Origin: an uncultured delta proteobacterium
GTDB lineage: Bacteria > Desulfobacterota > BSN033 > UBA1163
Assembly: GCA_963708295.1 (NCBI GenBank)
Contig: CAVPSJ010000011.1
Location: forward strand, 257,121 to 321,120
DNA length: 64,000 bases
Direction: 5' to 3'
Shown in pieces: positions 1,462 to 49,568 of the stretch (its first letter is position 1; every line of letters begins with the position of its first letter). The notes under the pieces were generated by a model. The model did not search any database. It had not been told where the DNA came from and saw only the letters and a program-made list of their open reading frames with translations. A program made the translations under genes and the position numbers.

Positions 1462-3408
1462 TTATTTCGGGTTGGGAAAAGCTCTCTTTAAAGAGGTTTC
1501 AGCTTGACTTGAATAAACAGGGTCTGCCCATCCTTCTTCAAACATCTTCTGTACCTCTCTAAGAATTCCATTCTCGTCAATTCCGTATTTTTCTCTGAGC
1601 AGAGCTTGTGGTCCGTGTTCGACGAAGATGTCAGGAATTCCCAGGCGACTGACTTGAGCCGGAAAAAAACCTCTCTCTTGGAAGAGTTCGAGCACCGCGC
1701 TTCCAAACCCTCCCTGAAGAACATTCTCTTCGACGGTGAGGACTTTCCCGGTCTTCTCGGCCCAATCGCACAGCAAGTTTGCGTCCAGAGGTTTTAAAAA
1801 CCTACTGTTGATGACGGTGGCCTGAATCCCGACTTCCGCCAATCTTTGCGCTGCCCGGAGGGCGGGATGAACCGTGGTGCCGATGGCGATGATGAGAATA
1901 TCCTTTCCTTCCCTCAGAACTTCGCCTTTTCCAATATCGATCGATTGGAGAGCCGCATCTCTTCTTTTGCCCTCCCCTTTCCCCCTCGGATACCGGAAAG
2001 CGACCGGGCCGGGACACTCCATGGCGGTTTTGATCATATGCTGAAATTCATTTTCATCCTTGGGAACCATCACGATCAGGTTCGGGATATGGCGAAGATA
2101 TGAAAAATCAAAAACGCCATGATGCGTCGGGCCATCCTCCCCCACAATTCCGCCACGGTCCAATGCAAAGACCACCGGAAGCCTTTGTAAACAGACATCC
2201 TGCAATACTTGGTCATAGGCCCTCTGTAAAAAAGTGGAATAGATGGCCACGACAGGTCGCATCCCTTCGAGGGCGAGCCCAGCAGCAAACGTGACGGCAT
2301 GCTGTTCCGCAATGCCAATATCATAGAATCGATCAGGGAATTGCCCCGCGAATTCCTCGAGGCCCGTTCCGCTCTGCATGGCGGCCGTGATCGCGATCAA
2401 GCGCTTATTCTCCTTCGCCAGCCGGCAGAGCGTTTCCCCAAAAATCTCCGTATAGCTGGGGGCGGTCTTCTGACTGCTCTTGAATTCACCCGTCTCGACG
2501 ACAAACGGCGGGACACCATGAAAACGGGAAGGATCCATCTCTGCAGGGGCATACCCTTTTCCCTTCTTGGTGATCACATGGATGAGGATGGGCCCCTCCA
2601 ATTTTTTAATGTTCTGAAAGGTTTCGATCAGGTAATCCAGGCGATGGCCGTCGATCGGCCCGATATACTTCAACCCTAATTCTTCAAAAAGGGCACCCGG
2701 CATGACGAGACCTTTCAAAGACTCCTCAGCCTGCTTGGCAAACCGAAGGACCGACTTCCCGATTCGAGGAAGGGTTTCCAAGAACCCCCCCATGTCACGA
2801 CGAACACGGTTTACGAACTGTCCGGTCATCAACCGGTTGAGGTAAGAAGAGAGGGCTCCCACATTCGGGGAGATGGACATCTCATTGTCGTTTAGAATGA
2901 CGATAAGATCCCGGTCAATGTGCCCTGTCTGATTGAGACCTTCAAAGGCCAGACCTGAGGTCATCGACCCATCCCCGATGACCGCGATGACCCTTCCCTC
3001 TTCACCTTTGAGCCTCCGGGCCTCCGCCATCCCAAGGGCGGAAGAGATGGAGTTGCCACTATGGCCGGAGTCAAACGCATCGTAAGGGCTTTCATCTCTC
3101 TTCGGAAAACCGCTGATTCCTTTGTACTGCCTCAGCGTCTGAAAGCGATCCCTTCTCCCTGTAAGGAGCTTATGAACATAACTCTGATGTCCGACATCCC
3201 ACACGACTTTATCCCATGGGAAGTCGAAAACATAGTGCAGAGCCGCAGTCAACTCGACCACGCCCAAATTAGAGGCTAAATGCCCTCCTGTTTTTGAAAC
3301 CGTGGAAATGATCTCCTCTCTTATCTCTCGGCAGAGCTCCACCAGTTCCTCCTGGTCTAGCTGCTTAATATCATGAGAGGTTTGTATCCGATCTAATACC
3401 TTCTCCAT
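1462..3408 (-). CDS. dxs: 1-deoxy-D-xylulose-5-phosphate synthase
   Basis: [43 protein letters not shown] and DGPTHHG motifs; 648 aa. Confidence 0.98.
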
Positions 3409-3496
3409 GGGTCAACCTTCCTTATCCCTTCTTGCCAAAAATATCTTAAAATACCGATGGGGCCTGACGACCATGCAGCAAAAGGAGTCTACCTTC

Positions 3497-3784
3497 TTAC
3501 TCGTTACCGTCTTCAGAAATTATTTCGTCGGAGTTTATCGAAGAAGATTGCCCCGAGTTCATGGACGGATCGAAAGGGTGTGGTTTGAGCATTCCATTTT
3601 TGTCTTTCAACAGAATCTCCACTTTCTTCTCTGCCTCATCCAGTTTTTGGTTACAGAATCGCGACAATCGGATGCCTTCTTCAAAGAGTCTCAGGGATTC
3701 TTCCAAAGCAATATCCCCCTCTTCTAATTTTGACACGATCTTTTCAAGTTTATGGAGCGCGTCTTCAAACTTTTCTTTTGCCAT
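3497..3784 (-). CDS. xseB: Exodeoxyribonuclease VII small subunit
   Basis: FEDALHKLEKIVSKLEEGDIALEESLRLFEEG; adjacent to xseA. Confidence 0.95.
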   Translation of the reverse strand: MAKEKFEDALHKLEKIVSKLEEGDIALEESLRLFEEGIRLSRFCNQKLDEAEKKVEILLKDKNGMLKPHPFDPSMNSGQSSSINSDEIISEDGNE

Positions 3785-3883
3785 CGCCCTCCCCTTCCCG
3801 GATTGCCGAAAGTCCTCCCGACCTTAAACGAAGGCAAGGACCCACGATTGAGAATTAATTCTATATTTTATAAGCCATGATCG

Positions 3884-5227
3884 TCAAGACCTGTCCGTTT
3901 TTTCAACCCCACAGAACAGTTTTCCTCGGAAAAGCTTCACCTCCACCCTGTCTCCTTCCCGGACATGGCTGGCGTCCCTTAAGATTTCTAACGAAGGAAC
4001 TTGACGCGTAATACTGTACCCCCTTCGAAGGATTGAAAGGGGGCTTAACGAATCCAACTTTCCGAAAGCGCCTGCCATTCTATGGCGGTGAATTTCAATC
4101 CTGTGTTTGATGAGTTGCTCCATTCGCCTTTGACCCTCCGAAACGAATAACCTGAGATTCTTCAACCTTTCCGCGGGAATTCGAAGAAGCAGTTTTTCAC
4201 TGAGGTGGGATTGTTTCTCCCTCGTTCTTTTAAGCGTCCACGAGGTCAAAAGGCGAAGCCGGTTCACAAGGTCATCCATCCGCAAGAAATATTCTTCCAT
4301 CTTCTTTTCTGGCTCACGGAAGACTCTTACGAGATGGGAGAGATGAGTTCGATATTCCTGAATCCTTTGAACCATTTCATTTTCTAAACGTCCTCGTAAA
4401 TAGTTGAGGATCTTTTTGATCTCCCTTTTGTCCCTGACGACCAACTCTGCGGCTGCAGACGGAGTCGGCGCCCTTAGGTCTGCGACAAAGTCTGAAATGG
4501 TGTAATCCGTTTCATGGCCTACGGCAGAGATGATGGGGATCTTCGAACGGAAGATGGCTCTTGCGACAGCCTCCTCGTTAAATGCCCATAGGTCTTCCAG
4601 CGAACCCCCTCCTCTGCCCACAATGATAACATCGACGTCCGTTCGTTGATTGAAAAACAGCAGCGCTTCAGCAATTTCTCTGGACGCCCTTTCCCCCTGA
4701 ACACGAACAGGATAGAGGAGGATATGAAGATTTTCGAACCGACGGTTGAGGACATGAAGCATATCTCGAATGACCGCGCCCGTCGGTGAAGTGATCACTC
4801 CAATTTTTTGTGGAACCATGGGGATCGGCTTCTTGCGACCCGTGTCAAAGAGCCCCTCTTTTTCGAGTTTCTCCTTCAATTGGAGAAAAGCAAGTTGAAG
4901 AGCTCCGACCCCCTTAGGCTCCATCGATTCTAAGATGAGCTGGTAATCCCCCCGCTTTTCGTAAACACCTACCCTCCCCCGACAAACAACATGGAGGCCA
5001 TCTTCCGGGGCGAAGCGAAGGGTTCGCGCCTGCATCTTGAAGAGAACGGCTCGAATCTGGCTGGCATCATCCTTCAAGGTGAAGTAGATGTGCCCCGAAG
5101 GAGGGATCCGGAGGTTTGAGATCTCTCCCTCGACCCAGACTTCCGGAAATCTGTCTTCAAGAATCTCCTTGATTTCTTGGGTGAGTTCTGAAACGGTCAG
5201 GATGTATCGAAGGGGTAACTCCATCAT
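3884..5227 (-). CDS. xseA: Exodeoxyribonuclease VII large subunit
   Basis: VWVEGEISN, SGHIYFTLKD, GRGGGSLEDLWAFN, SAVGHETD and RAPTPSAAAE; start placed at MMELP. Confidence 0.97.
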   Translation of the reverse strand: MMELPLRYILTVSELTQEIKEILEDRFPEVWVEGEISNLRIPPSGHIYFTLKDDASQIRAVLFKMQARTLRFAPEDGLHVVCRGRVGVYEKRGDYQLILESMEPKGVGALQLAFLQLKEKLEKEGLFDTGRKKPIPMVPQKIGVITSPTGAVIRDMLHVLNRRFENLHILLYPVRVQGERASREIAEALLFFNQRTDVDVIIVGRGGGSLEDLWAFNEEAVARAIFRSKIPIISAVGHETDYTISDFVADLRAPTPSAAAELVVRDKREIKKILNYLRGRLENEMVQRIQEYRTHLSHLVRVFREPEKKMEEYFLRMDDLVNRLRLLTSWTLKRTREKQSHLSEKLLLRIPAERLKNLRLFVSEGQRRMEQLIKHRIEIHRHRMAGAFGKLDSLSPLSILRRGYSITRQVPSLEILRDASHVREGDRVEVKLFRGKLFCGVEKTDRS

Positions 5228-5504
5228 TACGTTCGGGGTCCGGAGTATTGAGTTCGGAGTCTTAGCATTTTCATCGATCATCCCCTTTTTCTTAAGAAGC
5301 GTTCGAGGACGTCTGGCATAGTATAACACAAGATGTCGCAGTGTTCAGCTTTCATGTCAAGGGTCTACGTCAGGGGTGGCGCTTCGAGGTTAAGGTGACG
5401 ATCTCGATATTTCCCTGCTCTCAGGCAGAGCGTTCCTGCAAAATCGAGAGGTTGACTAAGAACGGGGATAGAGTTATAAATTTCAAGATGTTGAACTGGA
5501 GGGC

Positions 5505-6863
5505 TTGACATTGGACCATTTTACCTTAGATGAGATGAAGAGAATAGCAAAGGCCTTGTTTCTAAAGGCACTTTCCGCAGTCGATCCAGCCAAAATCCTG
5601 AAAGACAGAATTCGAATTGAGAGGGACCGATTATTCATCAAAACGGAAGGGAATTCAGAACGTTTTTTTGATTTGAAGAAGGTTGATAAAATTTTCCTTG
5701 TCGGCACCGGGAAAGCCGCCGGTGCGATGGCCAGGGCAATTGAAGAAATCTTCGAGGATCGAATCACAAAGGGAATCATCACAACAAAATATGGACATCA
5801 GCTGCCTCTCAAGAAGACGGATATCATCGAAGCCGGTCATCCCCTTCCTGACCGGAAGGGCTTCGAAGGAGCAAAGAAAATCCAGCGTCTGCTGCAAGAA
5901 TCCGGGCCAAGAGATTTGGTGATTTTTCTCCTATCGGGAGGCGCCTCGGCTCTACTCCCGTTCCCAGCCGACCAGATCGATCTCAAAGAGAAACAAGAGG
6001 TGACTCAACTTCTTCTCGACTGTGGAGCTGACATCCGGGAAATCAACACCATCCGGAAACATATCTCCAGGATCAAAGGAGGATGGCTGGCCAAGTGGGC
6101 CTATCCTTCTACGGTCATCGGGCTCATCCTGTCCGATGTCGTGGGAGATCATCTGGATGTCATCGGCTCGGGCCCTACCGTTCCCGATCCCTCCACCTTT
6201 GAAGAAGCTTGGGAGATTTTGAAAAAATATGACTTGATTAACGAAATTGCTCCTTCGATTCGGAAACATCTCCAGTCGGGAAAAGAAGGGAAAATCGAGG
6301 AGACCCCCAAGCCTCAAGAAGTGATCTTCGAGAGGGTCCACAACAGTCTCCTTGGGTCGAATATCCTCGCTCTTCAGGCAGCAAGAGAAGAGGCAGCTGC
6401 CCTTGGTTTCCACGTCTCCATCCTCTCCTCTTCGATCGAAGGTGAAACGCGGGAGGCCGCTCGATTTCACACCGCCATTGCCAAGGAAGTGATCTCCAGC
6501 GGGAATCCAATCCCGAGGCCTGCCTGCATCCTTTCCGGAGGGGAGACCACCGTGACCATCAAAGGGAAAGGTCTCGGAGGAAGAAATCAAGAATTTGTCC
6601 TGGCAGGAGCTTTAGAAATCAGCGGGGTCGAAAAGGTGGTCCTTCTGAGTGGCGGGACAGATGGAACGGATGGACCCACAGATGCAACGGGCGCGGTAGC
6701 AGATCATACCACGGTTCAGAGAGGAAAATCCCTGGGGCTGGACCCGAATTTCTATCTTGATAATAATGATGCCTATCCTTTCTTCAAGAAATTGGAAGAC
6801 CTTCTGATGACAGGACCGACTCATACCAACGTCATGGATGTTAGGATCCTTCTGGTAGACTGA
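5505..6863 (+). CDS. Glycerate 2-kinase (MOFRL family)
   Basis: GTGKAA, EAGHPLPD, SGGASAL, SGGETTV, GGRNQE, GTDGTDG and TGPTHTNVMD motifs. Confidence 0.92.
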   Translation: MTLDHFTLDEMKRIAKALFLKALSAVDPAKILKDRIRIERDRLFIKTEGNSERFFDLKKVDKIFLVGTGKAAGAMARAIEEIFEDRITKGIITTKYGHQLPLKKTDIIEAGHPLPDRKGFEGAKKIQRLLQESGPRDLVIFLLSGGASALLPFPADQIDLKEKQEVTQLLLDCGADIREINTIRKHISRIKGGWLAKWAYPSTVIGLILSDVVGDHLDVIGSGPTVPDPSTFEEAWEILKKYDLINEIAPSIRKHLQSGKEGKIEETPKPQEVIFERVHNSLLGSNILALQAAREEAAALGFHVSILSSSIEGETREAARFHTAIAKEVISSGNPIPRPACILSGGETTVTIKGKGLGGRNQEFVLAGALEISGVEKVVLLSGGTDGTDGPTDATGAVADHTTVQRGKSLGLDPNFYLDNNDAYPFFKKLEDLLMTGPTHTNVMDVRILLVD

Positions 6864-7035
6864 CCTCAGATGTGCGATGGAAAAGTCCCGTTCAAGGCGA
6901 AGCGCTCGTCAGATCATGACCGGACACGTCCAGCCTTCCTCCGGAACGTTTCTTTTTGAAGGGGCAGGTTAAAAGAGATTCAAACTCTGCTTGCTGCCCT
7001 TGGGTTCGAGGGTTAGCAACTTTTCAAAAAGGAAA

Positions 7036-7413
7036 ATGACCATGTATGAAATCACCGTCCATTCCCACTTCTCCGGAGCCCACCGATTGCGGTACCTCCA
7101 CGGAAAATGCGAAACATTGCACGGCCACAACTGGAAAGTGGAGGCTTCCGTCGTGTCCAATCGACTGGGCAAAGAAGGAGTGGTCATCGACTTCGGAATC
7201 TTGAAACAGAAAGTGGAAAAGGTCTTGAAGCCTTTGGATCATACCTACCTGAACGATCTCCCCTATTTTTCGGAAACGGAGCCCTCTTCCGAAAATATTG
7301 CAAAATATATCTTTGACCGACTCAAACGTGATCTGAAGGGACATTCAGGAATCCTTAAAAAGGTGACGGCATGGGAGTCGGAGACTTCGAGCGCCGCCTA
7401 TCTGCGGAGATGA
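7036..7413 (+). CDS. queD: 6-carboxytetrahydropterin synthase
   Basis: FSGAHRL, C..LHGHNW, LDHTYLN, PSSENIA and WES motifs. Confidence 0.93.
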   Translation: MTMYEITVHSHFSGAHRLRYLHGKCETLHGHNWKVEASVVSNRLGKEGVVIDFGILKQKVEKVLKPLDHTYLNDLPYFSETEPSSENIAKYIFDRLKRDLKGHSGILKKVTAWESETSSAAYLRR

Positions 7414-8204
7414 CCATGAACGATATTCAAAATCAAATGGATCATCGGAAGATTGAGATCAATAAAGTCGGGGTAAAAAATATCCGTTATCCGATTACCG
7501 TCTTGGATAAGGCAAAAGGGTTTCAACACACGGTGGCCAGCGTCAACATGTATGTGGATCTCCCTCACCGCTTCAAGGGAACCCACATGAGTCGCTTTGT
7601 AGAGATCCTCAATAAATACAAGGGAGATATTGCCATCAAAAACTTCTCGAAGATTCTGACAGAGGTCAAAAGGAGGCTGAAGGCCAAGACCGCCCACCTC
7701 GAGGTAGAATTTCCTTATTTCATCGAAAAGGAAGCTCCCATCACGAAATCGAGGAGTCTGATGGAATATATCTGTCGAATCTGCGGTTCAAGCAATGAAA
7801 AAGAGGATTTCTATATGGGGATTGTCGTGCCGATCACGACCGTGTGCCCCTGCTCAAAAGAGATTAGCCAATTCGGGGCACACAACCAAAGATCCCTTGT
7901 GACGGTCAACCTCCGATTCAGAAAATTCATCTGGATTGAAGATATCATCCAATTGATCGAGGAATGTGCTTCGTGTGATCTTTACTCTATTTTGAAAAGG
8001 CCGGACGAGAAATATGTGACAGAAAAAGGCTACGAAAATCCGATGTTTGTCGAGGATGTGGTAAGAGAGATTGCCAAACGCCTAAAAAAGGATAAGAACA
8101 TCACCTGGTTTACCGTGGAATCTGAAAACTTCGAGTCGATTCATAACCACAGCGCTTATGCTTTTGTAGAAAGAGGCGAAAACTTATCATTATCAAGGCC
8201 TTAA
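7410..8204 (+). CDS. folE2: GTP cyclohydrolase I type 2 (FolE2); 3' end supplied by island 1
   Basis: KGTHMSRF, TTVCPCSK, GAHNQRS, LKRPDEK, NPMFVEDVVR and ESIHNHSAYA motifs. Confidence 0.96.
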   Translation: MTMNDIQNQMDHRKIEINKVGVKNIRYPITVLDKAKGFQHTVASVNMYVDLPHRFKGTHMSRFVEILNKYKGDIAIKNFSKILTEVKRRLKAKTAHLEVEFPYFIEKEAPITKSRSLMEYICRICGSSNEKEDFYMGIVVPITTVCPCSKEISQFGAHNQRSLVTVNLRFRKFIWIEDIIQLIEECASCDLYSILKRPDEKYVTEKGYENPMFVEDVVREIAKRLKKDKNITWFTVESENFESIHNHSAYAFVERGENLSLSRP

Positions 8205-8408
8205 CTGTACCACCTTCTCTACCTGTGGTGAATTTTGTGACAAATCTTCCCCCCGAATATCGAGATACTTATTCTCCACAATCTCTGTCTTCTTCTTAGC
8301 GATCACCTTTTCCGCACCCTTCCGAGATGGCCCAATGGACTCCCTAACCTTCTGACCCTTGAACCAGAAATCAATATACCAATTATCCCCTCTTTGATAG
8401 ACTGCCAT
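8193..8408 (-). pseudogene. Tyrosine integrase remnant (N-terminal arm-binding segment fused to a probable C-terminal tail)
   Basis: MAVYQRGDNWYIDFWFKGQKVRESIGPSRKGAEK resembles an integrase arm domain; no catalytic domain; tail SQNSPQVEKVVQLRP resembles the tail of the island 2 remnant. Confidence 0.75.
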
Positions 8409-8440
8409 TCAAACCCCTCCTTTCTTTGAATTGTTTAGGA

Positions 8441-8596
8441 TTAATTGGATTTACCTCCTTTCTTCTCATATTTCTCCAGCCATTCATCCATTGCTCTTCT
8501 GATGATTTCTGCTATTGGATAGCCAGCTTTTTTAGCAATCGCTTTGAACTTCTTTAACTGAGCCTCCGTCAAATAGATATTAGTTCTTGTCATCAT
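8441..8596 (-). CDS. Ribbon-helix-helix (CopG-like) protein
   Basis: MTRTNIYLTEAQLKKFKAIAKKAGYPIAEIIRRAMDEWL fits the RHH pattern. Confidence 0.8.
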   Translation of the reverse strand: MMTRTNIYLTEAQLKKFKAIAKKAGYPIAEIIRRAMDEWLEKYEKKGGKSN

Positions 8597-8722
8597 GGTT
8601 TTTTCTCCCCAAGAGATATACATCATACATACACTAATTAGACTCTTTTGTCAAACACTATTTTTGAGACTCTTCCTCGGTCATTGGTCGGTTAGGTTGA
8701 TCGGGCTTACCTTATTTCCCAT

Positions 8723-9148
8723 TCATTTGCATACTATTTTGTAACATATTGCTGTAATTGTTCCCGAAGCTATAAAATTCCATTCCCGTTCTAAATTAGG
8801 GAGAGAATATATAACACCTCCATGTTTGGAGCAATCGTGGGAGCAAACAATACAGCTCTTTTTGTCAACACAATTGATCTCCCGCAAAATCAATGTTTCA
8901 CCTAAATTCTTATATTTCTCCCCAAATCTTGCTGCCATCTCATCTATACCTTTCTGTGAATAAATAATTCTCAACCAAATTCCATAAATGTTCTCTGATG
9001 GATGAGTTATTCCTTGTGCGTCGTAAAAATATTCCCCCGTATCGTTTTTTAGCAAAAACTTCCAATCCGCCCCCCACACTTCCGCACTACCAAACATAGC
9101 AACTCCAATAATAAAAATAACTCCAAGCTTTACTAAGAATGATTTCAT
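8723..9148 (-). CDS. Secreted protein, surface-adhesin E-like family
   Basis: Signal peptide ending EVWGA; DWK..YFYDA..I, EINC and W.FI motifs; paralog of 9652-10080. Confidence 0.65.
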   Translation of the reverse strand: MKSFLVKLGVIFIIGVAMFGSAEVWGADWKFLLKNDTGEYFYDAQGITHPSENIYGIWLRIIYSQKGIDEMAARFGEKYKNLGETLILREINCVDKKSCIVCSHDCSKHGGVIYSLPNLEREWNFIASGTITAICYKIVCK

Positions 9149-9169
9149 TCAGGTCCCCCCTTCTCGCCT

Positions 9170-9346
9170 TGTTACACCATTTTTTCCCCATTTCAAGATT
9201 TACCTCGTTCACCATTTCCAAAAACTCCTCTTTGGTGAATATTCCCTCTCCACAAGCAACCTAATAATAGCCTCCTGTGAGACTACCTGGGACATTAAGA
9301 GTTCATCATTCAAAACGAGGTGTTTAGGGTCGAGAGCGATTGCCAT
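9170..9346 (-). pseudogene. Frameshifted small hypothetical gene
   Basis: MAIALDPKHLVLNDELLMSQVVSQEAIIRLLVE then, in a shifted frame, GIFTKEEFLEMV; strong RBS; a homologous remnant lies at ~48420-48505; left end approximate. Confidence 0.55.
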
Positions 9347-9386
9347 TCAACTTACCTCCTTCATTCTTATATTTCCCAAAAGCTCA

Positions 9387-9572
9387 TCAATCGTTCTTCT
9401 GATACCCTGCTAATCCACAATACCCCATTTCCTCATGAGTAGTTGGTACTGCGGGGGATTTTCTCCATGCCATACAGAATAAGTTGGAACAGAATCTGTT
9501 AGGATCCGCCCTATCCAATACAAATTTAAACGGACAATATTTTGTAGCTGCGTCTGCTATTGTGACTAACAT
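9387..9572 (-). CDS. Small Cys-rich phage-like hypothetical protein
   Basis: CPF...C...CMAW...GYCGLAG pattern; AAGGAGG RBS. Confidence 0.65.
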   Translation of the reverse strand: MLVTIADAATKYCPFKFVLDRADPNRFCSNLFCMAWRKSPAVPTTHEEMGYCGLAGYQKND

Positions 9573-9651
9573 GATCCATCCTCCTTCTTTCGGCCATTGG
9601 CCGGTTAGGGTTAGTCGGGTTCACCTCCTTTGTGTTTTCCACCGTGGTTCT

Positions 9652-10080
9652 TTAAGGTTTCTTACATGGAATTTTGTATAATGCCTCATCAATAGAGTCA
9701 GGAGACATAAAATTCCAATTGGAGATTTGTCTATAATCAGGTATTAATAACTTTCCATCTTCAGAATAAAATGCTATAGGTACTATTACCTTCTTTTTAT
9801 CTCCACAATTGTATTCAAATAAAGCTATCGCATAGCTCAAAGTCTCATATTTTTTCCCTAACAACCTCACCATATCATGTACACCCTTCTCCATATAAAG
9901 TACTTTTATCCACACCCTAACACTACCCTGAGATGGTCGGGTTATGCGATCTGCATCGTAGTAATACATTCCATCATCAGCTTGATCAATATATCTCCAA
10001 CTCGCTCCCCACACTTCACCATAGGTAAAGATAGCAAGCCCGATAAGGATGACTCCCAATTTACCCAATAATGATTTCAT
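9652..10080 (-). CDS. Secreted protein, surface-adhesin E-like family
   Basis: MKSLLGKLGVILIG..EVWGASW signal; YYYDA.RI, VRVWIK, EYNC and W.FMSPDS motifs. Confidence 0.65.
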   Translation of the reverse strand: MKSLLGKLGVILIGLAIFTYGEVWGASWRYIDQADDGMYYYDADRITRPSQGSVRVWIKVLYMEKGVHDMVRLLGKKYETLSYAIALFEYNCGDKKKVIVPIAFYSEDGKLLIPDYRQISNWNFMSPDSIDEALYKIPCKKP

Positions 10081-10111
10081 TTGGTCACCCCTTCTTTGGA
10101 GAAGTGTAACT

Positions 10112-10927
10112 CTATTCTAAAACTTCACTGCTGATCCATCCTTCTTGGTTATTGTCTGACCGCACCCTAACCCATTCCCCAGATTGCTCCAAAATAGTTA
10201 GCTTATCACCTTTTCGGAAAGTAGCTATTACTGGATAATCATTTCCGGGGCCAGATTTAGCAACTGAGAAGTCCCAAGTAAGAATTTTCCTTGTCCCTGA
10301 AGAAAAAGTAGTTGGGGCTGACGTTATAGGTTTCTCAGGTGCATATTCTTGGCTCTTAACAGCTTCACTGTTAATCCATCCTTCTTTTCCATCTTCCAAC
10401 CGAACATTAAACCACTCTCCACGTTCTCCAATTACGGTTAACTTATCTCCTTTATCCACTGTCATCACGATAGGAAATTCATTCCCTGCGCCTGAGCGAA
10501 TATCTGCGGAAGTCCAAATGACAGTAACAACAGTTGCTGTACCTGAAGGAGGAATAGTTGGGGTTGATGTTATTGGTTTTTCCGGTTTTGCTGTTTCAGG
10601 TGGTAGGGATTCTACAGCTTTTAATTGTGGTGCTTTTTGTTGGCTGTTGTAACCTCCTTTTGTATAAAATAAAGTGCTATTGGTAATAAGGGATCCCCCT
10701 GCGTGAACCTCCCACTCATACCCCCTATCCTTCATGCAGTTGGCTAAATCTTTCTGAAGCTTCGGGAATACCGCAGATGACCTCATTGCCTCACGCCTGC
10801 ACTCAACATAATCCTTTGAAAACTGCTCATATGAAGCTTCCGGTTTAACCCAATACCCATTTTTAAGATAAGGAGCACATCCATTAAACATCACCATCGC
10901 CACCAAAACCAACATGATCTTTTTCAT
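10112..10927 (-). CDS. Lipoprotein with two bacterial SH3 (SH3b) domains
   Basis: Lipobox FNGC; two repeats of R/KSG.GN..P......GDKLT....GEW..VR.....EGWI. Confidence 0.8.
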   Translation of the reverse strand: MKKIMLVLVAMVMFNGCAPYLKNGYWVKPEASYEQFSKDYVECRREAMRSSAVFPKLQKDLANCMKDRGYEWEVHAGGSLITNSTLFYTKGGYNSQQKAPQLKAVESLPPETAKPEKPITSTPTIPPSGTATVVTVIWTSADIRSGAGNEFPIVMTVDKGDKLTVIGERGEWFNVRLEDGKEGWINSEAVKSQEYAPEKPITSAPTTFSSGTRKILTWDFSVAKSGPGNDYPVIATFRKGDKLTILEQSGEWVRVRSDNNQEGWISSEVLE

Positions 10928-11269
10928 GCTTTCCCTCTGTCCTTCTTCTCAAACCTGTCCCAATACTCATCAGATGTCCTTTTAAGATAGACCTTTCATT
11001 TGGATTGTCAATAAAATCTTTGGACTTGATTGGACATGGATTCAGAAAAAATTTTATTGTATTTCGTTTGAGCTTGAGTGAGAAGAAGATTCGTTAATTT
11101 TTTTAATCTCAAACTCCATAGTGCTCTTTCATTGAGGAGATTAATTTTTCCATGGCTTGGTGTTCCATGGCCGTGCATGGTTCAAAAATCCATTTTTCCC
11201 TGAGAGTTTCTTGGGTAATATGAATGATGTTCATTTTATACCCCCTATCAATGAGAATCGAGTAAGTCT

Positions 11270-11425
11270 TTATTGTCTGAACCATTTAATATCCTTCTTT
11301 GCAATCCTCCAATCCCTTCCCACCTTGTGGGCAGGGATTCCCTTAGCCCAAAGCCTCCGATAGATCGTCTTTGGATTAACCCCGAAATGGTCTGCAAGCT
11401 GGTTGACAGTATAGTAGTCCTTCAT
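11270..11425 (-). CDS. Excisionase-like helix-turn-helix protein (51 aa, not in ORF track)
   Basis: Manual translation MKDYYTVNQLADHFGVNPKTIYRRLWAKGIPAHKVGRDWRIAKKDIKWFRQ*. Confidence 0.8.
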   Translation of the reverse strand: MKDYYTVNQLADHFGVNPKTIYRRLWAKGIPAHKVGRDWRIAKKDIKWFRQ

Positions 11426-11705
11426 TTCTTTTTTCCCTCAATCCGAAGAGGGCCATTTGAAGGAAGTAATTTAGAACTTTTGTGTCAATCTCTTTCTCTT
11501 GTGGCTCCCATTAAAAATAAAATCCCAGTAATTTCGGACTCTTAAATTTGGCATACAAAATGCATTTTCTAACTCAGGCGGTTGACTCCGCTTACCTCCT
11601 TTTAATGATATCTCCTTTCACAGCACCTTCGGGGGGTGGATCAGGGAAACCCCCCACCAGTTCTGTGTATGTTGGCTTACAAGGTTTACAGAAAGGAGAA
11701 GTATA

Positions 11706-11930
11706 ATGCAAAAATGGGAGCATTCTTTTTTGATACGATACATAACAGAAAAAACGAGATACAAAGAAGCTGTTTTCATTGGGTCTGACGGCACAGAAGA
11801 AAAATGCCCCGCTAAAGAAGAAGACCTTTTGATAGAGCTTAACAAGTTGGGAGCAGAAGGGTGGGAGGTTGCGGGTTATGGAGTCTCTCCAAGCCATAAA
11901 GCAATATGGACCCTCAAAAGACCTATATAG
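11706..11930 (+). CDS. DUF4177-like small protein
   Basis: MQKWEH...LNKLGAEGWEV...LKRP; AAGGAG RBS. Confidence 0.7.
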   Translation: MQKWEHSFLIRYITEKTRYKEAVFIGSDGTEEKCPAKEEDLLIELNKLGAEGWEVAGYGVSPSHKAIWTLKRPI

Positions 11931-11998
11931 AGAAGCAAAGTAGCCTATTATCCCCATAGTTCACATTTTCTTCAATCTCCCTCTGTTCTCTCGCTTGA

Positions 11999-12187
11999 TC
12001 AATACAATCCATCAAGTTCCCTTTTTAGGCAATCCACACAGGCGATGCCCTGCGTGGTGAAGTCAAGCTTTTCATCTCGCATAATTTCTCGCTGACAAAC
12101 ATGGCATTGAACTATTAAGTCCACAGGAGGCAACTCACCCGACTTCCTACGTTTCCAAGTGGAGAGGAATTCTTCTGCTGGATTCAT
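11999..12187 (-). CDS. Small CxxC...CxxC hypothetical protein
   Basis: CHVC and CVDC pairs; ATGA overlap with the upstream ORF. Confidence 0.5.
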   Translation of the reverse strand: MNPAEEFLSTWKRRKSGELPPVDLIVQCHVCQREIMRDEKLDFTTQGIACVDCLKRELDGLY

Positions 12188-12429
12188 TGTCCCAAGTCTT
12201 GTTTAACCTGACTGATAATCCTCTTAGCTTTTAGAAGCTGCTCCACTGCCAAGTCTCTTTCACTCGTCAAGCTGGCAATGATCCTGTGGCATCTTAGAAC
12301 CTCACCATCTGCCCAGGTTTTATGATCTTCCACAGACTGTTTGACGGCCTGTCCTAAATTCTCCAGAGTTTTCTCAATCGAATCCTGTCTCTCGATACTC
12401 GACTTCAATTTTTCTTGGACTTTCTCCAT
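12184..12429 (-). CDS. Coiled-coil hypothetical protein
   Basis: 81-aa ORF with AAGGAG RBS and heptad character. Confidence 0.55.
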   Translation of the reverse strand: MEKVQEKLKSSIERQDSIEKTLENLGQAVKQSVEDHKTWADGEVLRCHRIIASLTSERDLAVEQLLKAKRIISQVKQDLGQ

Positions 12430-12480
12430 ACTATTCTCCTTCCTGAATCTTCTTTAGACACTTCTCACAGCATGGCTTCT

Positions 12481-12573
12481 CTATCCATCATTGCTGATCT
12501 GGAACAAGTACCCGTTCAACTCCTGGGGAATGTTATCAATAAGAATTTCTAGTCGTGGTGGTCTTGGGTTCAT
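12481..12573 (-). pseudogene. Possible N-terminal stub of a phage primase-polymerase (NrS-1-like)
   Basis: MNPRPPRLEILIDNIPQELNGY then an early stop; NIPxEL is typical of such N-termini, but the match is short. Confidence 0.3.
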
Positions 12574-12587
12574 AATACAGAGTTCCT

Positions 12588-12719
12588 TCAGTTCTTAATG
12601 GTTACAGCGGTACTGCCTGGAAATATCTTCTTCACTTCCTCAACAATACGAGCTTCTTCCTTGGTCAGCTTCCAGGTTTTGCTTTTCACTTTCTCGGGTT
12701 TTGGTTTTGTGTCTGTCAT
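12588..12719 (-). CDS. 43-aa hypothetical protein
   Basis: MTDTKPKPEKVKSKTWKLTKEEARIVEEVKKIFPGSTAVTIKN*. Confidence 0.45.
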   Translation of the reverse strand: MTDTKPKPEKVKSKTWKLTKEEARIVEEVKKIFPGSTAVTIKN

Positions 12720-12728
12720 CTTATTGAT

Positions 12729-12764
12729 AAAAAAGCCGAGACACCATTTAGGTAATCTCGGCTT
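12729..12764 (-). terminator. Intrinsic terminator inside the island's small-gene operon
   Basis: 9-bp stem AAGCCGAGA/TCTCGGCTT followed by a U-tract on the minus strand. Confidence 0.75.
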
Positions 12765-12811
12765 ACTGGCTTTAAGCTTGCTTGCTTATGACTGGCTTGC
12801 CGTTTTATTCG

Positions 12812-12988
12812 TTAATTAAGTATGTAGCCACCATTCCTGGTTCTTATAATTCGGTATTCACGGACCTTTCCGGGCTCAAGGAGAATAATCAATCTTTTAG
12901 GGAATTGGCCCTTACTATCAAGAATAAGTTTATCTCCTTCAATCCTATCTGCATGTAAGTGAGTCTCTGATTTCTTGGTTTGCTCCAT
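12812..12988 (-). CDS. 58-aa HemP/HmuP-like small protein
   Basis: MEQTKKSETHLHADRIEGDKLILDSKGQFPKRLIILLEPGKVREYRIIRTRNGGYILN*; the C-terminus resembles the HemP motif YRLRxTRxGKLIL. Confidence 0.5.
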   Translation of the reverse strand: MEQTKKSETHLHADRIEGDKLILDSKGQFPKRLIILLEPGKVREYRIIRTRNGGYILN

Positions 12989-13142
12989 GGTTATTTTCCG
13001 ATTCCTCTTGAAGTCTTACCAGCAAGAATGTTGAATACGGAAGAGACACCCTGCTTCACCGTTTCGCCATGTTTCCGCCTGATTTCTGGTTAACGATGTC
13101 ATTCATTACCCTGTCAATCTCCCTTCATCACTCTCAAAGTAT

Positions 13143-13204
13143 GAAGCGGAGGCCCAGGCAGTAGGGAATACCGCTTTTCGGTAGCGAACCTAGAGCCTCC
13201 CTTC
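13143..13204 (-). ncRNA. Candidate two-stem structured RNA element
   Basis: Outer stem GAAG-GGAGGC..CTAGG / CCTGGGCCTCC-CTTC with G-U pairs on the minus strand; inner hairpin TACCG-AAAAG-CGGTA. Confidence 0.35.
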
Positions 13205-13747
13205 AATGTTTACTTCTCCTCGGTAGTATCTTCAACCTTTTCCTGCTTTTCCTGTTCACTGGTCGCGGCCTTTTGCACGCACTCTCCTAACGCCCCGATT
13301 GAGTCAGCTTCCCGGCATTCAGGGTGCTGACGGTAAAGTATAAGACCCCCAATGATCGTCCCCGGCATGAAAAAAAGCCGCTATCAAAAGCCTCTGTCTT
13401 TTTGGTCGTGGTGAGGGTGAAAGTTATAGCAAGCAGGATCGCCAACAGAATAACTATTAAATTCTTCATTTTCCGTTCTCCTTTTTGAATGGGCTCAAAG
13501 TCTATCCTGCGCCTCAGTTGATTATATCTCCCCCTTTTGGGATTCTGTAACTGTTTTCTCTTTATCGTGTTCAAACCCTTTCTTGTCGAATGCCCTAGTC
13601 TATCCCTCTGTTTTAAAATATGGGGGGATTTCGTGACTACCTTCGCTCCTTTTCAATAGAATCAAGGCTATTTCGTCACTCATCTTCATTTTAGAAAATT
13701 CCAAAGGTTTCATTAAGTTGTCGGCCTTGCCTATCTTGCGAGAAGCT

Positions 13748-13787
13748 CAGCGCTTATGCCTATGTCGAGCGAGGGGATAACGTTTGA
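13748..13787 (+). other. attR with the displaced folE2 3' end
   Basis: Encodes SAYAYVERGDNV*, versus the current folE2 tail SAYAFVERGENLSLSRP*. Confidence 0.85.
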
Positions 13788-13861
13788 GAAACCGAGTTGC
13801 TGCCGAACCATGAATCGATTTAAAGGGAGAACTGATCGAGGAGGGTTTGAAAGCTTTGGCC

Positions 13862-14512
13862 TTATCTTCCGGTCCTTGTTTTCGCCACATCCCAGCAGTA
13901 GTCATAAATATGGAGTCCCTTGCTGGAGGCAATGATCTCACCGTCCTCTACCCCAATCTCCTTCGCCATATATTCCTTAAGGAGTTGAAGGCCGGCCAGA
14001 TTGGATGGAAATCCCGCCCATAAATCCCACGAACGGAAGTAGAGCATGAAATGGAGTTTTCCATTACGAATGCGCGTATCCACGCCGCGGAGGCATTGGG
14101 GGTCCTGGAGTAAAATTGAACCGGCGTTGCCGACCGCCATGTACGCCTGATTGGTATTGAGTCCTTCTTCCCGATACATCCGGATGACTTCGTCGATCTG
14201 TTTTTCAAGATCCTCCCCATAGGTGTAGGTTTCGTGGACATCTTTTCTCGATGTGATCAACTTCTCAAGATATTGTTCCACGTATTCCATCGAGGTGGGA
14301 GGGGGAACATTGCAACCCGGAGGGATGTCCGGGATGAGCGGTCTTGTACCGGGGTGGGTGATGTGGACGACGATATAGTCATATTCCAACCTCTTCTGGC
14401 CTTTGAAACTTCCCCGGTCGATGGTATATTCATAGCCCTTGTCAAAAAGGTTGTAAACACATTGAAACCATGCGTCTGGCAAATCCCTTGCCCGAATGAA
14501 CTCGATCTTCAT
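13862..14512 (-). CDS. thyA: Thymidylate synthase family protein (short type)
   Basis: YTYG, catalytic PQCL, FRSWD...FPSN and LHIY motifs; 216 aa. Confidence 0.8.
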   Translation of the reverse strand: MKIEFIRARDLPDAWFQCVYNLFDKGYEYTIDRGSFKGQKRLEYDYIVVHITHPGTRPLIPDIPPGCNVPPPTSMEYVEQYLEKLITSRKDVHETYTYGEDLEKQIDEVIRMYREEGLNTNQAYMAVGNAGSILLQDPQCLRGVDTRIRNGKLHFMLYFRSWDLWAGFPSNLAGLQLLKEYMAKEIGVEDGEIIASSKGLHIYDYCWDVAKTRTGR

Positions 14513-45843: not shown

Positions 45844-47196
45844 ATGTGCGGTATCTTTGGGATCTATAATCATTTTGAAGCATCCAATCTCGCGTATCTA
45901 GGCCTCTATGCCCTCCAGCATCGTGGCCAGGAGAGCGCTGGGATCGTCTCCTCAGACAGGAGACAACTCCATCATTACCGCCAGATGGGGTTGGTCTCTG
46001 AGGTCTTCACCCAAGATATTCTGAAGCGACTCACTGGAAATAGCGCCATCGGCCATGTCCGGTATTCAACCGCCGGTTCAAGCGAGCTCAAAAACGCCCA
46101 GCCTTTTTCTGTGGATTATCACAAAGGCAGTTTAGCCATCGCCCACAACGGCAATCTGACCAATGCCTTTCTTATTAAAAGCGAACTCGAATCGAAAGGT
46201 TCCATATTTCAGTCGAATATGGATACGGAGGTCATCGTTCATCTCATCGCCCGTTCCAAAGAAAAAAGCTTCGTAGAGCGAACGGCCCATGCCCTCAAAC
46301 AGGTGGAAGGAGCCTACTCTTTACTCATCCTGACGGAGAACGAGATGATCGCAGCCAGAGATCCTTTTGGTTTAAGGCCTTTGGTTCTCGGTCAGCTTAA
46401 GGATGCACCTGTGGTTGCCTCTGAGACATGCGCCTTTGACCTCATCGGAGCCAAGTTTGTCAGGGAGATTGAACCCGGCGAAATCCTCTTGGTGAATGAA
46501 GACGGAACGAAATCCTTCAAACCCTTTGCGCGCAAACAACTTCACCAATGCATCTTTGAGTTCATCTACTTCGCCCGGCCGGATAGTTTCCTTTTCAACA
46601 GAAGTGTTTATGAAGTCAGAAAATCGTTTGGAGTTCAGCTTGCCAGGGAGTCCCCAGTCGATGTGGATATGGTCGTTCCTATCCCAGATTCCGGATTCTC
46701 GGCCGCATTGGGCTACGCAGCTGAATCGAAAATCCCCTTCGAACTTGGAATGATAAGAAATCATTATATCGGACGGACGTTTATCGAACCCGAACGACGA
46801 ATTCGCCATTTCGGTGTCAAGATCAAGCTGAACCCGGTAAGAGAATTATTGAAAGGCAAAAAGATTATCACCGTGGATGACTCCATCGTCCGGGCAACCA
46901 CCAGCCGAAAGATCAACAGGATGTTTCGGAATGCCGGCGCACAAGAAATTCATGTCAGAATCAGCTCTCCACCCATTACCCACCCCTGTTTTTTCGGCAT
47001 CGACACCCCAAAAAGATCAGAACTGATCGCCTCCTCCCATAAGATCAAGCAGATTCAAAAGTTCATCGAGGCGAGTTCTCTACATTATTTAACTTTAGAG
47101 GGTCTCAAGAAGTGTGTAAAGGAAGACGCCGAACAGTTCTGCTATGCCTGTTTCACAGGAGATTATCCCATACCTTTCCAGATGGATTTAGAGTAA
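45844..47196 (+). CDS. purF: Amidophosphoribosyltransferase; 3' end at island 2 attL
   Basis: [40 protein letters not shown] and VDDSIVR. Confidence 0.97.
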
Positions 47197-47201
47197 AAAC
47201 A

Positions 47202-47330
47202 TTACCCCTTACATTCCAATACTTTTCGTTCCTGCTCTTTTTCATGTGGGGGATTTTGTGCCATGAGCTGATCCAGAGCATCCAAAGCGCTTATTTTATG
47301 GTTTGGAGCAGAACGGGCGTGGCGTAACCT
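47202..47330 (-). pseudogene. Tyrosine integrase C-terminal remnant
   Basis: LRHARSAPNHKISALDALDQLMAQNPPHEKEQERKVLECKG* resembles the RYAHLAPxHK..A...LD tail with the catalytic Tyr lost. Confidence 0.6.
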
Positions 47331-47363
47331 CCTTCTTTTGCCAATCGGCGGGTTAACGTTTTA

Positions 47364-47795
47364 TCACGTCCGCCTCCTTCCCGTTGTTTCTTTCTTGCCT
47401 AAAAGTAAGAATCCCAAACCAAGTCCAAAAATAATGATGCTAAATGCTACACAATCAAAATAGTGAATAGAAATAGAAATTTCCCGGTTCTTAACTCTTG
47501 ATGGTAGGTCTAATATGATCTCTTCTACGGACATATCCGAATCTGAAAAACTATCTACTTTCCTCCCTCTCTCTAATTTCATGTATTTTTCATATACACT
47601 AGGGTCTCTTTTTCTAAGCATGTCTTCATATTCCTTATGACTGTAATAAATCGCATCCTTTAGGACGAACCGACCAACATATTTAGATCGAATATTCTTA
47701 AGGTTAAACTTCCCTCCCTTGAAATCAGTGTAAAGTGAAACAATTATAGGGAAGAGAAATCCAAAAATAAGAAATATGAAACCAATCCTTCTCAT
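47364..47795 (-). CDS. Hypothetical membrane protein (N- and C-terminal TM)
   Basis: 143 aa; GGAGGTGA RBS; two hydrophobic segments. Confidence 0.65.
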   Translation of the reverse strand: MRRIGFIFLIFGFLFPIIVSLYTDFKGGKFNLKNIRSKYVGRFVLKDAIYYSHKEYEDMLRKRDPSVYEKYMKLERGRKVDSFSDSDMSVEEIILDLPSRVKNREISISIHYFDCVAFSIIIFGLGLGFLLLGKKETTGRRRT

Positions 47796-47856
47796 TCACC
47801 TCACCTCCTTTCTTTCGCCCGTTGCCCGGTTAAAGTTATCGGGTTGACCTCCTTCC

Positions 47857-48021
47857 TCAGAATTTTACTCCTGCGCTCTTTGCCCAGATATAGAAAAAAT
47901 CATCAGCAAAGATCCAGACCCGTCGCTCGTCATCATTCAATTTCTTGACGTTCGGATATTTCCGCCGGATGGCCTGATCCAACTCCCGCCTGTTCTTTCT
48001 GATAAATTGGTCTAAGGTCAT
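47857..48021 (-). CDS. 54-aa phage-like hypothetical protein
   Basis: MTLDQFIRKNRRELDQAI...LNDDERRVWI...WAKSAGV; GGAG RBS. Confidence 0.55.
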   Translation of the reverse strand: MTLDQFIRKNRRELDQAIRRKYPNVKKLNDDERRVWIFADDFFYIWAKSAGVKF

Positions 48022-48533
48022 ACTTAATCTCCGTTTTTTGCGTCCAGAATGCTCCCAGGACAAGGCTTCTCACCGCTGCCTATACTGCAAAAAACCATGA
48101 ATCAATAAGTTACGTTAACCTCCATCCGTGCCAATGGCATCAAACGTTAACGGCTCACCTTTTCTGCTTTTGTGACCTTCTTCGAAACTGTATTGATATT
48201 TTTTCAACCCTAAGACGCAACGTTTTAAGCTCGTCCTCTAAGCCTTTCACTTGATTTTCAAGGCTGGTAACCTTCGATTCTAAAGATCGTATTCTCCTTG
48301 ATTGTGATCATTATTCTTTATATCTATCAAGGAGGTCAGCGGACCATCCAATCGCCACGATGAATATTAAACCACAGAGAATAGCGACTAAATATTTTTC
48401 ATGCTTGCCCCCCTCTCTGGCCTTGTTACACCATCCTGTCGATCTTGAGATTAACTTCTCATTCACCATTTCCAAAACCTCCTCCTGGGTGATTATTCCC
48501 TTTTCATCGCCAACAAGATCAATACAATCTTAT

Positions 48534-48689
48534 TCATGCTTTCCCCCTCCCCTTTTTCTCAAACCCTTCCCAATATTTGTCAAAAGCCCTTCTTAAAATC
48601 TCAGAAGCACTAAGACCTGTTTTTTTACAAATCAAACCCAATCTCCTGAACTGGAAATCCGTGAGATAAAACATTCGCCTCTTACCCAT
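48534..48689 (-). CDS. Ribbon-helix-helix protein (51 aa, not in ORF track)
   Basis: MGKRRMFYLTDFQFRRLGLICKKTGLSASEILRRAFDKYWEGFEKKGRGKA*; homologous to 8441-8596. Confidence 0.75.
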   Translation of the reverse strand: MGKRRMFYLTDFQFRRLGLICKKTGLSASEILRRAFDKYWEGFEKKGRGKA

Positions 48690-48906
48690 GATCTTAAATC
48701 CCCTCCGATTGAGATGTATCGTTATGATATACCCCTCATTTCTTTTTTGTCAAGCATTTCCTTGGACTTCATTGGGCATGGATTTAGAAAACATTTAGAA
48801 AACATTTTGTTGCGTTCTACCTAATTTTTTGATATCTTGTTCTTGGCAATCAACTCCTGACTGCGTCTCCTCATATTTTCGATTCTAAAATAGGGAGTGC
48901 GCTTAA

Positions 48907-49401
48907 ATGAATTTAATAGCTGTTATAGAGAAACTTATTAATGGATCTGCCATCCTTAAGGAACAGCTTGAGTTTCTTAGGGATCAAATATCTGCACTTG
49001 AGAAAGAGAATGGTGCGCTCAAATCGGAGATTGCCAATTTGAAGCACAAGCAAAATGAAAATGAATCTCAATTTGATAAGGCAACAAAAGAAATAGAACG
49101 ATTGAATCAGGTCATTGAAGCACCTAAAAAAGAGGATGCAAAGCCACATCTCGATGCAATGACTGAGAAAGTTTTGAAACTGTTATTTGACAAAGGTCGG
49201 GACATGTCTATGAATGAAGTCGCTGCCACTCTTTCTATGGATATTGGCACCGCTCAGTATCATTTCGATCTCCTTTTAGAAGGTAATTTAATAATACAAA
49301 CAAGGACAGGCTTCACATCTTCTCGGAGTCGTGAAAATGCCCCTTTTTTTGAGCTTACTCTCTCTGGTCGGAAATATGTCGTTGAGAACATTCTCAAATA
49401 A
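48907..49401 (+). CDS. Coiled-coil plus winged-helix hypothetical protein
   Basis: Heptad N-terminal half; VAATLSMDIGTAQYHFDLL...FELTLSGRKYV wHTH. Confidence 0.7.
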   Translation: MNLIAVIEKLINGSAILKEQLEFLRDQISALEKENGALKSEIANLKHKQNENESQFDKATKEIERLNQVIEAPKKEDAKPHLDAMTEKVLKLLFDKGRDMSMNEVAATLSMDIGTAQYHFDLLLEGNLIIQTRTGFTSSRSRENAPFFELTLSGRKYVVENILK

Positions 49402-49568
49402 CCATTGCCTCACCTGTTGCCTCAACCACACAATATCCTTCTTCGCAATCCTCCAGGCCCTTTCGACCTTATACGCCGGGATTGGATTAGCCACAACCTC
49501 TGGCAGATCGCATTTGGATTCAATCCACGATATTCTGCCAGTTCGCTAAGTGTGAAGAACTCCTTCAT
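49395..49568 (-). pseudogene. Frameshifted excisionase-like HTH gene
   Basis: MKEFFTLSELAEYRGLNPNAICQRLW / IPAYKVERAWRIAKKDIVWLRQ in two frames; homolog of 11270-11425; ends approximate. Confidence 0.7.

Follow-up and report, generated by a model that had tools for sequence, protein, structure and literature searches.

A probable fossil integrative element at the 3' end of folE2 in an uncultured delta proteobacterium, with its own substitute gene end

Introduction

The icd gene of Escherichia coli is the integration site of the cryptic prophage e14 and of phage 21. Insertion of e14 leaves icdC, a pseudo-3' end of icd, as described in PMC13626634, which cites Hill, Gray and Brody 1989. More widely, many genomic islands insert in protein-coding genes and reconstitute them, according to an account of TIGER/Islander (PMC12884075). 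In this work, we describe a comparable arrangement at folE2, the gene for the folate/queuosine enzyme GTP cyclohydrolase IB, in a stretch of 64,000 nucleotides (nt) from an uncultured delta proteobacterium (contig CAVPSJ010000011.1), referred to below as the window. We interpret window positions 8162-13747, with a probability of close to nine in ten, as the fossil of a small integrative element, which was inserted by a tyrosine integrase in folE2 codons 260-264 (HSAYA) and brought its own substitute gene end.

An earlier note, made from the sequence alone, had proposed that an island integrated into folE2 and restored the gene with a recoded 3' end. Here we follow up that proposal by comparing the locus with genomes of relatives, with metagenome contigs and with protein families, and we place the integrase in the context of its closest relatives.

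Direct repeat and the two ends of folE2

The sequence CAGCGCTTATGC occurs in the tail of folE2 (8150-8161) and again at 13748-13759. These are the sole two matches in the window when up to one mismatch is allowed; shuffled sequences gave 0.13 matches on average, and two matches were reached in none of 100 shuffles. In a repeat search, the pair extended to an imperfect direct repeat of 39 nt (8145-8183 / 13743-13781, 77% identity). The folE2 open reading frame (ORF; 7371-8204) ends in ...HSAYAFVERGENLSLSRP before its stop codon, an end also given as SAYAFVERGENLSLSRP, and the distal copy continues in frame as SAYAYVERGDNV to a stop codon at 13785-13787. Over the 21 nt that follow the core, the two copies differ at six positions. 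Four of these are third codon positions (GTA/GTC, GAA/GAG, GGC/GGG and GAA/GAT), one is a first position (AGA/CGA, synonymous) and one a second position (TTT/TAT, F/Y), and four of the six differences are synonymous. The region is therefore bounded by direct repeats of the attL/attR kind at a conserved target, as expected of a site-specific island.

The repeated block, the in-frame continuation of its distal copy and the bias of the differences towards third positions, with the peptide kept, had all been pointed out in the earlier note and are borne out by these counts. Its supposition of a diverged homologous tail carried in attP also stands, and it is in these terms, rather than as a 'recoded' end, that the replacement is better described.

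The empty site

Contigs of four public metagenome runs were compared with window positions 7600-14400; none of the runs contains more than 0.14 of the sampled words of this stretch. One contig of 332 nt, from run X3, joins 8037-8149 directly to 13748-13966 (113 + 219 nt). It skips 5598 nt exactly, has five differing letters in total, and includes 12 letters that fit either side. This joint is the empty attB site, in a near-identical strain, and it represents the attB-spanning sequence that the earlier note had named as a check.

An integrase remnant convergent on folE2

The first gene of the island is the remnant of a tyrosine integrase, convergent on folE2 and overlapping its stop codon. Its parts can be recognized by comparison with the integrase of a relative, G045, which has 351 amino acids (aa) and is the only intact one among 68 genomes of the class that were searched. 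Residues 1-52 of the G045 protein match window 8408-8253 at 86.5% identity (tblastn); in the window this arm-binding domain is fused in frame, near 8243-8252, to the last ~15-20 residues of the enzyme, and the final residues, ..SPQVEKVVQLRP before the stop, match the C-terminus of the G045 integrase. At the nucleotide level (blastn), window 8103-8242 aligns at 86% with the folE2 end, attL and integrase 3' end of G045, and window 8253-8426 aligns at 79% with its integrase 5' end. Between them, 10 nt in the window stand where G045 has 850 nt, an in-frame loss of 280 codons (residues 53 to ~332 of the G045 protein) that includes the whole catalytic domain. Accordingly, ORF 8193-8408 has no match to the catalytic-domain family PF00589 and is a remnant. 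The last 12 nt of the folE2 replacement tail are the antisense of the last codons and stop of the integrase (SRP-stop / LRP-stop).

The Pfam search found no intact mobility gene and no transposase in the window, and a search of the rest of the 91%-complete assembly gave no integrase above 34% identity to that of G045. Since its own integrase is a stump of 71 aa, the window copy is a fossil and immobile. The island integrating at folE2 that the earlier note described thus holds as an element at this gene, and not as one that still has a complete integrase of its own.

A split integrase of the SSV type, with attP inside the integrase gene, was considered, as the N-terminus of the integrase faces outward from the island. 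It was rejected: no integrase C-terminal ORF is found at attR, and the stump contains the true C-terminal codons.

Intact elements with the same architecture

In G045, folE2 and the intact integrase gene are convergent with a 12-nt overlap, and the integrase protein shows, by eye, HDLRHTF ... LRYAHL. A metagenome scan for the integrase yielded 46 loci. Ten of them have an integrase at least 72% identical to that of G045 together with a 3' flank, and in eight of the ten (L085-L091 and L111) folE2 is convergent on the integrase stop. The eight contigs, the intact integrase of G045 and remnants in three further genomes (G009, G012 and G006) are the convergent integrases that the earlier note had suggested looking for.

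One of the contigs, L090, holds a complete 8.3-kb element with both junctions and a 28-nt repeat with one mismatch. Its attL reads ..SAYAYVERGEDD and its attR SAYAYVERGNDD, each followed by a stop codon, and the common stretch is ACAGCGCTTATGC[T/C]TATGTGGAAAGAGG. Its integrase matches PF00589 (E 2.2e-35) as well as Int_N and Arm-DNA-bind_2, so that the catalytic domain lost from the window is present in an intact relative. Another contig, L089, carries two folE2-type elements in tandem (1558-12391, reverse complement), and the inner junction holds the tail of the older element, SAYAFVERNASPEISRH before the stop. Every junction pair whose second copy is clear, including those of L090 and L089, contains the block AGCGCYTATGC (the second copy in G009 is decayed). 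Strand exchange is therefore placed within this block, and its exact positions in the core are ones that we infer. The motif [YF]VE[RH] is kept in each of the 14 tails on the element side, of which six run into the integrase stop region and eight end sooner.

The elements differ in what they carry. L090 encodes a DUF3987 protein, SpoVG and an M48 peptidase, and L091 an AEP primase and a ribosomal protein S21 homologue. L089 also has a ribosomal protein S21 homologue, and its outer element is the carrier of Phage_capsid, small terminase (Terminase_4) and Phage_rep_O genes; by its gene content, this outer element resembles a phage satellite. Because the cargo differs, the integrase-attP module appears to be common to several kinds of small element. 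No relatives of the integrase were found in the viral contig collection, and the closest match among deposited phages is 35% identical.

A candidate arm-type integrase site lies inside the right end of the island (Table 1), and a direct copy of it, GGTGAATTTTGTGAC, lies at 8227-8241, within the 3' coding end of the integrase gene. The motif stands at an equal distance from the core in L090 and L089. It has three matches in the window, but three were also reached by 14 of 100 shuffles, so that the motif is not significant alone. Core-type inverted repeats flanking the crossover could not be defined by eye.

In run X5, a soil metagenome, one contig about 90% identical to the window departs from it at 8171 and continues ..AATGACTCCGTATAATCAGGGCCT. 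Its end resembles an element tail of the G045 type and probably marks another occupied folE2 site in a relative.

The ends of folE2 in relatives

FolE2 is present in 38 of 41 genomes searched, including that of the window. In same-genus relatives without integrase DNA after folE2, the protein ends in YVERG plus 2-5 residues, with the listed ends GTNDQ, GPNDE, GTEDL, GNDDQ, GNENL, GTDD and GNGE. The distal remnant in the window, YVERGDNV, is of this type, which is the outcome that the earlier note had expected if relatives were aligned. The end ...LSLSRP is found in none of these integrase-free same-genus relatives. At the family level, 16 of the 21 loci examined lack integrase DNA after folE2; tails that end in S[RG]P before the stop occur only where integrase DNA follows (G012, G045 and the window) and in none of the 16.

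In three genomes (G007, G024 and G020), folE2 is directly followed by a thymidylate-synthase-like gene, which in the window lies beyond the island. The distance between the two genes is 80 nt in G007, and by the same measure the thymidylate-synthase-like gene starts 78 nt past the distal remnant in the window. The island is hence missing, with a precise empty site in the X3 contig, from these close relatives as well. Integrase DNA directly follows folE2 in G009, G012 and G006, and weakly in G001. G009 has a 93-aa C-terminal integrase piece and a decayed 21-nt second tail copy 4.6 kb off, and G012 and G006 share an identical internal integrase junction. Altogether, clear cases of integrase DNA after folE2 number 4 among 15 genomes of the genus, the window included, and all of them are decayed.

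In many relatives, folE2 and the thymidylate-synthase-like gene are separated by an acyl-CoA dehydrogenase gene, so that the spacer after folE2 also varies for other causes. In one locus (L008, in G011), the folE2 frame extends to 312 aa (..YVERPSMDLYSF..), and the gene appears to be fused, via a deletion, to the antisense of the adjacent acyl-CoA dehydrogenase gene.

FolE2 as a chimeric protein

The folE2 product matches PF02649 (E 2.9e-100, 335 bits) and the NCBIfam equivalog NF010200 (298 bits, cut-off 215), a full-length family match above the curated cut-off that places it in GTP cyclohydrolase IB. The likely start is the ATG at 7410, which overlaps the stop of queD, the gene before folE2. 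With numbering from 7371, FolE2 is host-encoded up to Ala264 and element-encoded over its final 13 residues. In the solved homologues (2r5r, 8g6c and 3d2o), the aligned stretch reaches query residues 266-271, and the chains stop 2-4 residues beyond it.

No type-IA GTP cyclohydrolase (PF01227) was found in the 91%-complete genome, in a search whose control was positive in 11 of 14 genomes. For this reason, and because the residues kept in element tails are those kept in class-level relatives, a working FolE2 tail should matter to the host. The chimeric FolE2 with its element tail probably still works, as judged from its sequence.

Origin of the island and alternative explanations

The repeat, the empty site, the integrase remnant and the recurrence of the architecture with intact integrases are direct observations, and they fit the following course of events. 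In the ancestral element, attP would have been located ~30 nt past the integrase stop codon, and its sequence would have included a diverged version of the final ~35 nt of folE2. By classical recombination between attP and attB, with crossover within AGCGCYTATGC, the host folE2 would have come to read into element DNA and thereby gained a new 13-residue end, FVERGENLSLSRP, whose last codons are the antisense of the last codons of the integrase. The original end, YVERGDNV, would have been left at the far junction as a pseudo-tail. Later, an in-frame deletion of 840 nt would have removed the integrase catalytic domain, and the island is now fixed unless a cognate integrase acts in trans.

Several points weigh against this account. 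The empty-site joint is a single contig with a depth of 3.5 from one run, and the circular attP junction (13747 back to 8162), which the earlier note had named as an alternative check, was not seen in the contigs of the four runs, each with at most 0.14 of the words. G012 lacks a recognizable attR copy (no second tail copy of at least 11 nt), and two contigs with integrases 72-76% identical to that of G045 (L092 and L093) are not followed by folE2. The window also has no working integrase, and the assembly none above 34% identity to the G045 enzyme, by which this particular copy could be mobilized. As for the restoration of the gene, the activity of the chimeric enzyme is something we infer from the open frame, the [YF]VE[RH] residues and the lack of a PF01227 alternative. 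In addition, the [YF]VER kept in element tails could reflect the needs of the integrase at its core site and not selection on FolE2.

This last point leads to an improbable alternative, in which the element did insert at folE2 and its substitute tail has no role in FolE2: the similarity would serve only the core-type binding sites of the integrase, and FolE2 would tolerate any short tail or be impaired. It would agree with the short and variable natural tails after SAYA (6 to 15 residues in relatives), with the structure of the Neisseria gonorrhoeae enzyme, whose chain stops 3 residues past the equivalent of Val266, and with the wide divergence of element tails after VER. It accounts poorly for the finding that 14 of 14 element tails are in frame with [YF]VE[RH], residues that are kept in class-level relatives, or that, past the core in the window, four of six differences are synonymous. 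FolE2 also appears to be the sole GTP cyclohydrolase I of the genome, and the tRNA genes and the ANTAR-type gene targeted by sister integrases are likewise left complete at their ends. Part of the similarity between attP and the folE2 tail may nevertheless serve integrase binding rather than FolE2.

The route by which the 5.6 kb reached this strain is a separate matter. Acquisition or spread among strains by homologous recombination, via the flanking folE2 and thymidylate-synthase-like genes and with the att structure taken over from the donor, seems rather unlikely, though it has more in its favor than a tail without function. The integrase is dead in the window and decayed in G009, G012 and G006, and the junction common to G012 and G006 points to an island that had already decayed when it was inherited, vertically or by recombination. 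Such a route would leave the nature of the structure unaltered; the sharp 12-nt boundaries and the exactness of the empty site are a signature of site-specific recombination, whenever it took place, and intact elements exist. It is very hard to sustain the remaining explanation, in which the repeat would have arisen by chance or as a transposon target-site duplication, within an ordinary variable host segment. The window does lack an intact mobility gene, and the genus varies in what lies downstream of folE2, often an acyl-CoA dehydrogenase gene. Against this stand the expectation of 0.13 matches, the in-frame extension of the repeat to 39 nt, the lack of any transposase found in the window, the recognizable integrase remnants, the recurrence of the same junction with intact integrases, and an exact empty-site contig. 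Insertion by a tyrosine integrase, with a substitute folE2 end, is thus the explanation we retain.

Content of the island

The GC content per 1-kb bin is 0.39-0.425 over 8001-13000 and 0.46-0.52 in both flanks, so the composition of the island differs from that of its surroundings. The left half is collinear with the G045 island (integrase, Adhesin_E-like, SH3 lipoprotein and ribbon-helix-helix genes). The first Adhesin_E-like protein is 63-71% identical to its G045 counterpart over ~130 aa (tblastx segments), and the SH3 lipoprotein is ~78% identical. The HTH_17 protein, 83% identical over 53 aa to the product of a gene in the L089 element, is a candidate directionality factor (excisionase) by its family. 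Five small ORFs have no above-threshold Pfam or PHROGs match, and capsid, terminase and replication genes are absent among the island ORFs in searches against both collections, so the window island does not classify as a prophage or phage satellite.

Table 1. Features of the folE2 locus and of the island, in window coordinates
Feature	Position	Strand	Evidence or remark
folE2 (GTP cyclohydrolase IB)	7410..8204 (ORF open from 7371, 277 codons)	+	PF02649, NF010200, solved homologues
attL core	8150..8161	+	12-nt identity block containing crossover; His260 (third base), Ser, Ala, Tyr, Ala264 (first two bases)
Element-borne folE2 replacement tail, F VERGENLSLSRP, then stop	8162..8204	+	sequence; 8103-8242 aligns at 86% to G045
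Internally deleted tyrosine integrase, 71 aa	8193..8408	-	tblastn and blastn against G045; Arm-DNA-bind_2 E 0.002, below cut-off
Ribbon-helix-helix (CopG/Arc-like) regulator	8441..8626	-	Pfam RHH_3 E 5.7e-9; PHROGs Arc-like repressor; homologue in G045 island
Secreted Adhesin_E-like protein, copy 1 (cargo)	8723..9148	-	PF16747 E 1e-3, below cut-off
Secreted Adhesin_E-like protein, copy 2 (cargo)	9652..10080	-	PF16747 E 1.8e-9, 38.3 bits, cut-off 23.7
Lipoprotein with two bacterial SH3 domains (cargo)	10112..10927	-	SH3_3 E 1.4e-29; TIGR04211 81 bits, cut-off 65
HTH_17 excisionase-family DNA-binding protein	11270..11425	-	PF12728 E 3.4e-13; PHROGs excisionase families
Small ORF without family	11706..11930	+	
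Small ORF without family	11999..12187	-	
Small ORF without family	12184..12429	-	
Small ORF without family	12812..12988	-	
Small ORF without family	13287..13574	-	
Candidate arm-type integrase site GGGGGATTTCGTGAC	13623..13637	+	motif search; weak alone
attR	13748..13787	+	core 13748-13759 and displaced original folE2 3' end (SAYAYVERGDNV, then stop), now pseudo-tail
Thymidylate-synthase-like gene	13862..14512	-	Pfam PF00303 E 4.9e-10; host neighbor of folE2 at empty site

Short direct repeats (8435-8503, 9345-9403 and 9605-9631; 81-85% identity) lie upstream of the ribbon-helix-helix gene and of both Adhesin_E-like genes, which suggests that a small promoter-plus-gene module was duplicated within the island. 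On the same contig, ~36 kb before the start of the window, 670 nt (C11:220742-221410) are 97% identical to window 10004-10675, which comprises the end of the second Adhesin_E-like gene and part of the SH3 lipoprotein gene. This segment is a second copy of island cargo, recently duplicated, and it lies near an integrase-like frame (C11:223550-223987).

Other targets of the integrase clade

The integrase tree has 30 rows, from 33 sequences aligned over more than 240 aa minus L092, L096 and L103, which have in-frame stops. Nine folE2-associated integrases form one group (93/91) within a clade supported at 100/99, which also includes L093 and L094. The integrases around this clade converge on tRNA-Gln(CTG), tRNA-Arg(CCT) or the 3' terminus of an ANTAR-like gene. 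The nearest ones outside the folE2 clade are 56-68% identical and convergent on one or the other tRNA gene; in L078 and L077, the integrase stop lies ~10-40 nt from the tRNA 3' end.

A sister clade, 47-61% identical, is convergent on a gene whose product ends ..REIAEAILLTEKMG.. and is ANTAR-like by eye. In L115 (reverse complement), a 14-nt direct repeat at 3600-3700 / 8546-8646, 4.9 kb apart, is accompanied by a displaced ..EKMGG end with its stop; this looks like the tail-restoring design of folE2 at another protein gene.

The window itself has a second low-GC stretch (47197-49850; 0.39-0.43), which starts right after purF (45844-47196). The minus strand at ~47200-47330 reads ..ALDQLMAQNPPHEKEQERKVLECKG before a stop, the C-terminal remnant of an integrase of this same family, convergent on purF, and at 49288-49604 there is a fragment that resembles HTH_17. 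A search for a second copy of the purF end gave nothing clear, the only match being one of 11 nt (E 0.11).

It is conceivable, though we put the chances slightly below even, that one tyrosine integrase clade of these uncultured anaerobes repeatedly moved between the 3' ends of tRNA genes and the extreme 3' ends of protein genes (folE2, the ANTAR-type gene and probably purF in the window), each time with a captured tail that abutted the stop codon of the integrase. As such tails outlast the decay of the element, several species of the genus would now have housekeeping enzymes whose C-termini derive from mobile elements.

Comparison with known systems

With this locus, folE2 and its conserved terminal HSAYA codons join the protein-coding genes that serve as attachment sites. 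The related integrases, 56-87% identical to one another, also form a small natural set in which target change can be studied: two tRNAs, folE2 and an ANTAR-type gene are used, and in every case attP matches the target. Such a set is of use in the search for enzymes suited to genome insertion. In genome annotations, the 13 C-terminal residues of this FolE2 are to be regarded as element-derived, and 13748-13787 as a gene fragment rather than a gene. The earlier note knew of no integration at folE2, and in the literature searched we likewise found no paper that names this gene as an attachment site; the TIGER/Islander supplementary lists may already include it.

Among described islands, that of the window fits the class of protein-gene-reconstituting islands described for TIGER/Islander. 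It also resembles grounded or cryptic prophages and decayed islands, in which the recombinase is deleted while cargo and att scars are kept (PMC6379469). Unlike such prophages, it has no phage structural genes in the window, although the related L089 has capsid and small-terminase genes. Integrases that target tRNA 3' ends and carry part of the tRNA in attP also use a conserved target that the element restores. In contrast to those, the restored sequence here is protein-coding, so that the restoring segment is constrained by a reading frame and not by tRNA structure.

The closest parallel is e14 in icd. In both cases, a tyrosine-integrase element crosses over within the 3' part of a gene for a housekeeping enzyme, which then continues into element DNA with a diverged, mostly synonymous end, and the displaced original end remains as a pseudogene at the far junction; for e14, excision re-joins gene and pseudogene. 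A crossover near the coding 3' end, an in-frame alternative end and a pseudo-3' end left behind are all found at folE2. Several features set the two systems apart: the target here is folE2, the substitute tail and the stop codon of the integrase overlap on opposite strands, the window copy lacks an intact integrase, and the host is an uncultured bacterium. The substituted part amounts to only 13 codons (43 nt) in folE2 and is far longer in icd. The mechanism is thus the textbook one of e14 and icd, and only the folE2 target and the integrase clade appear to be new.

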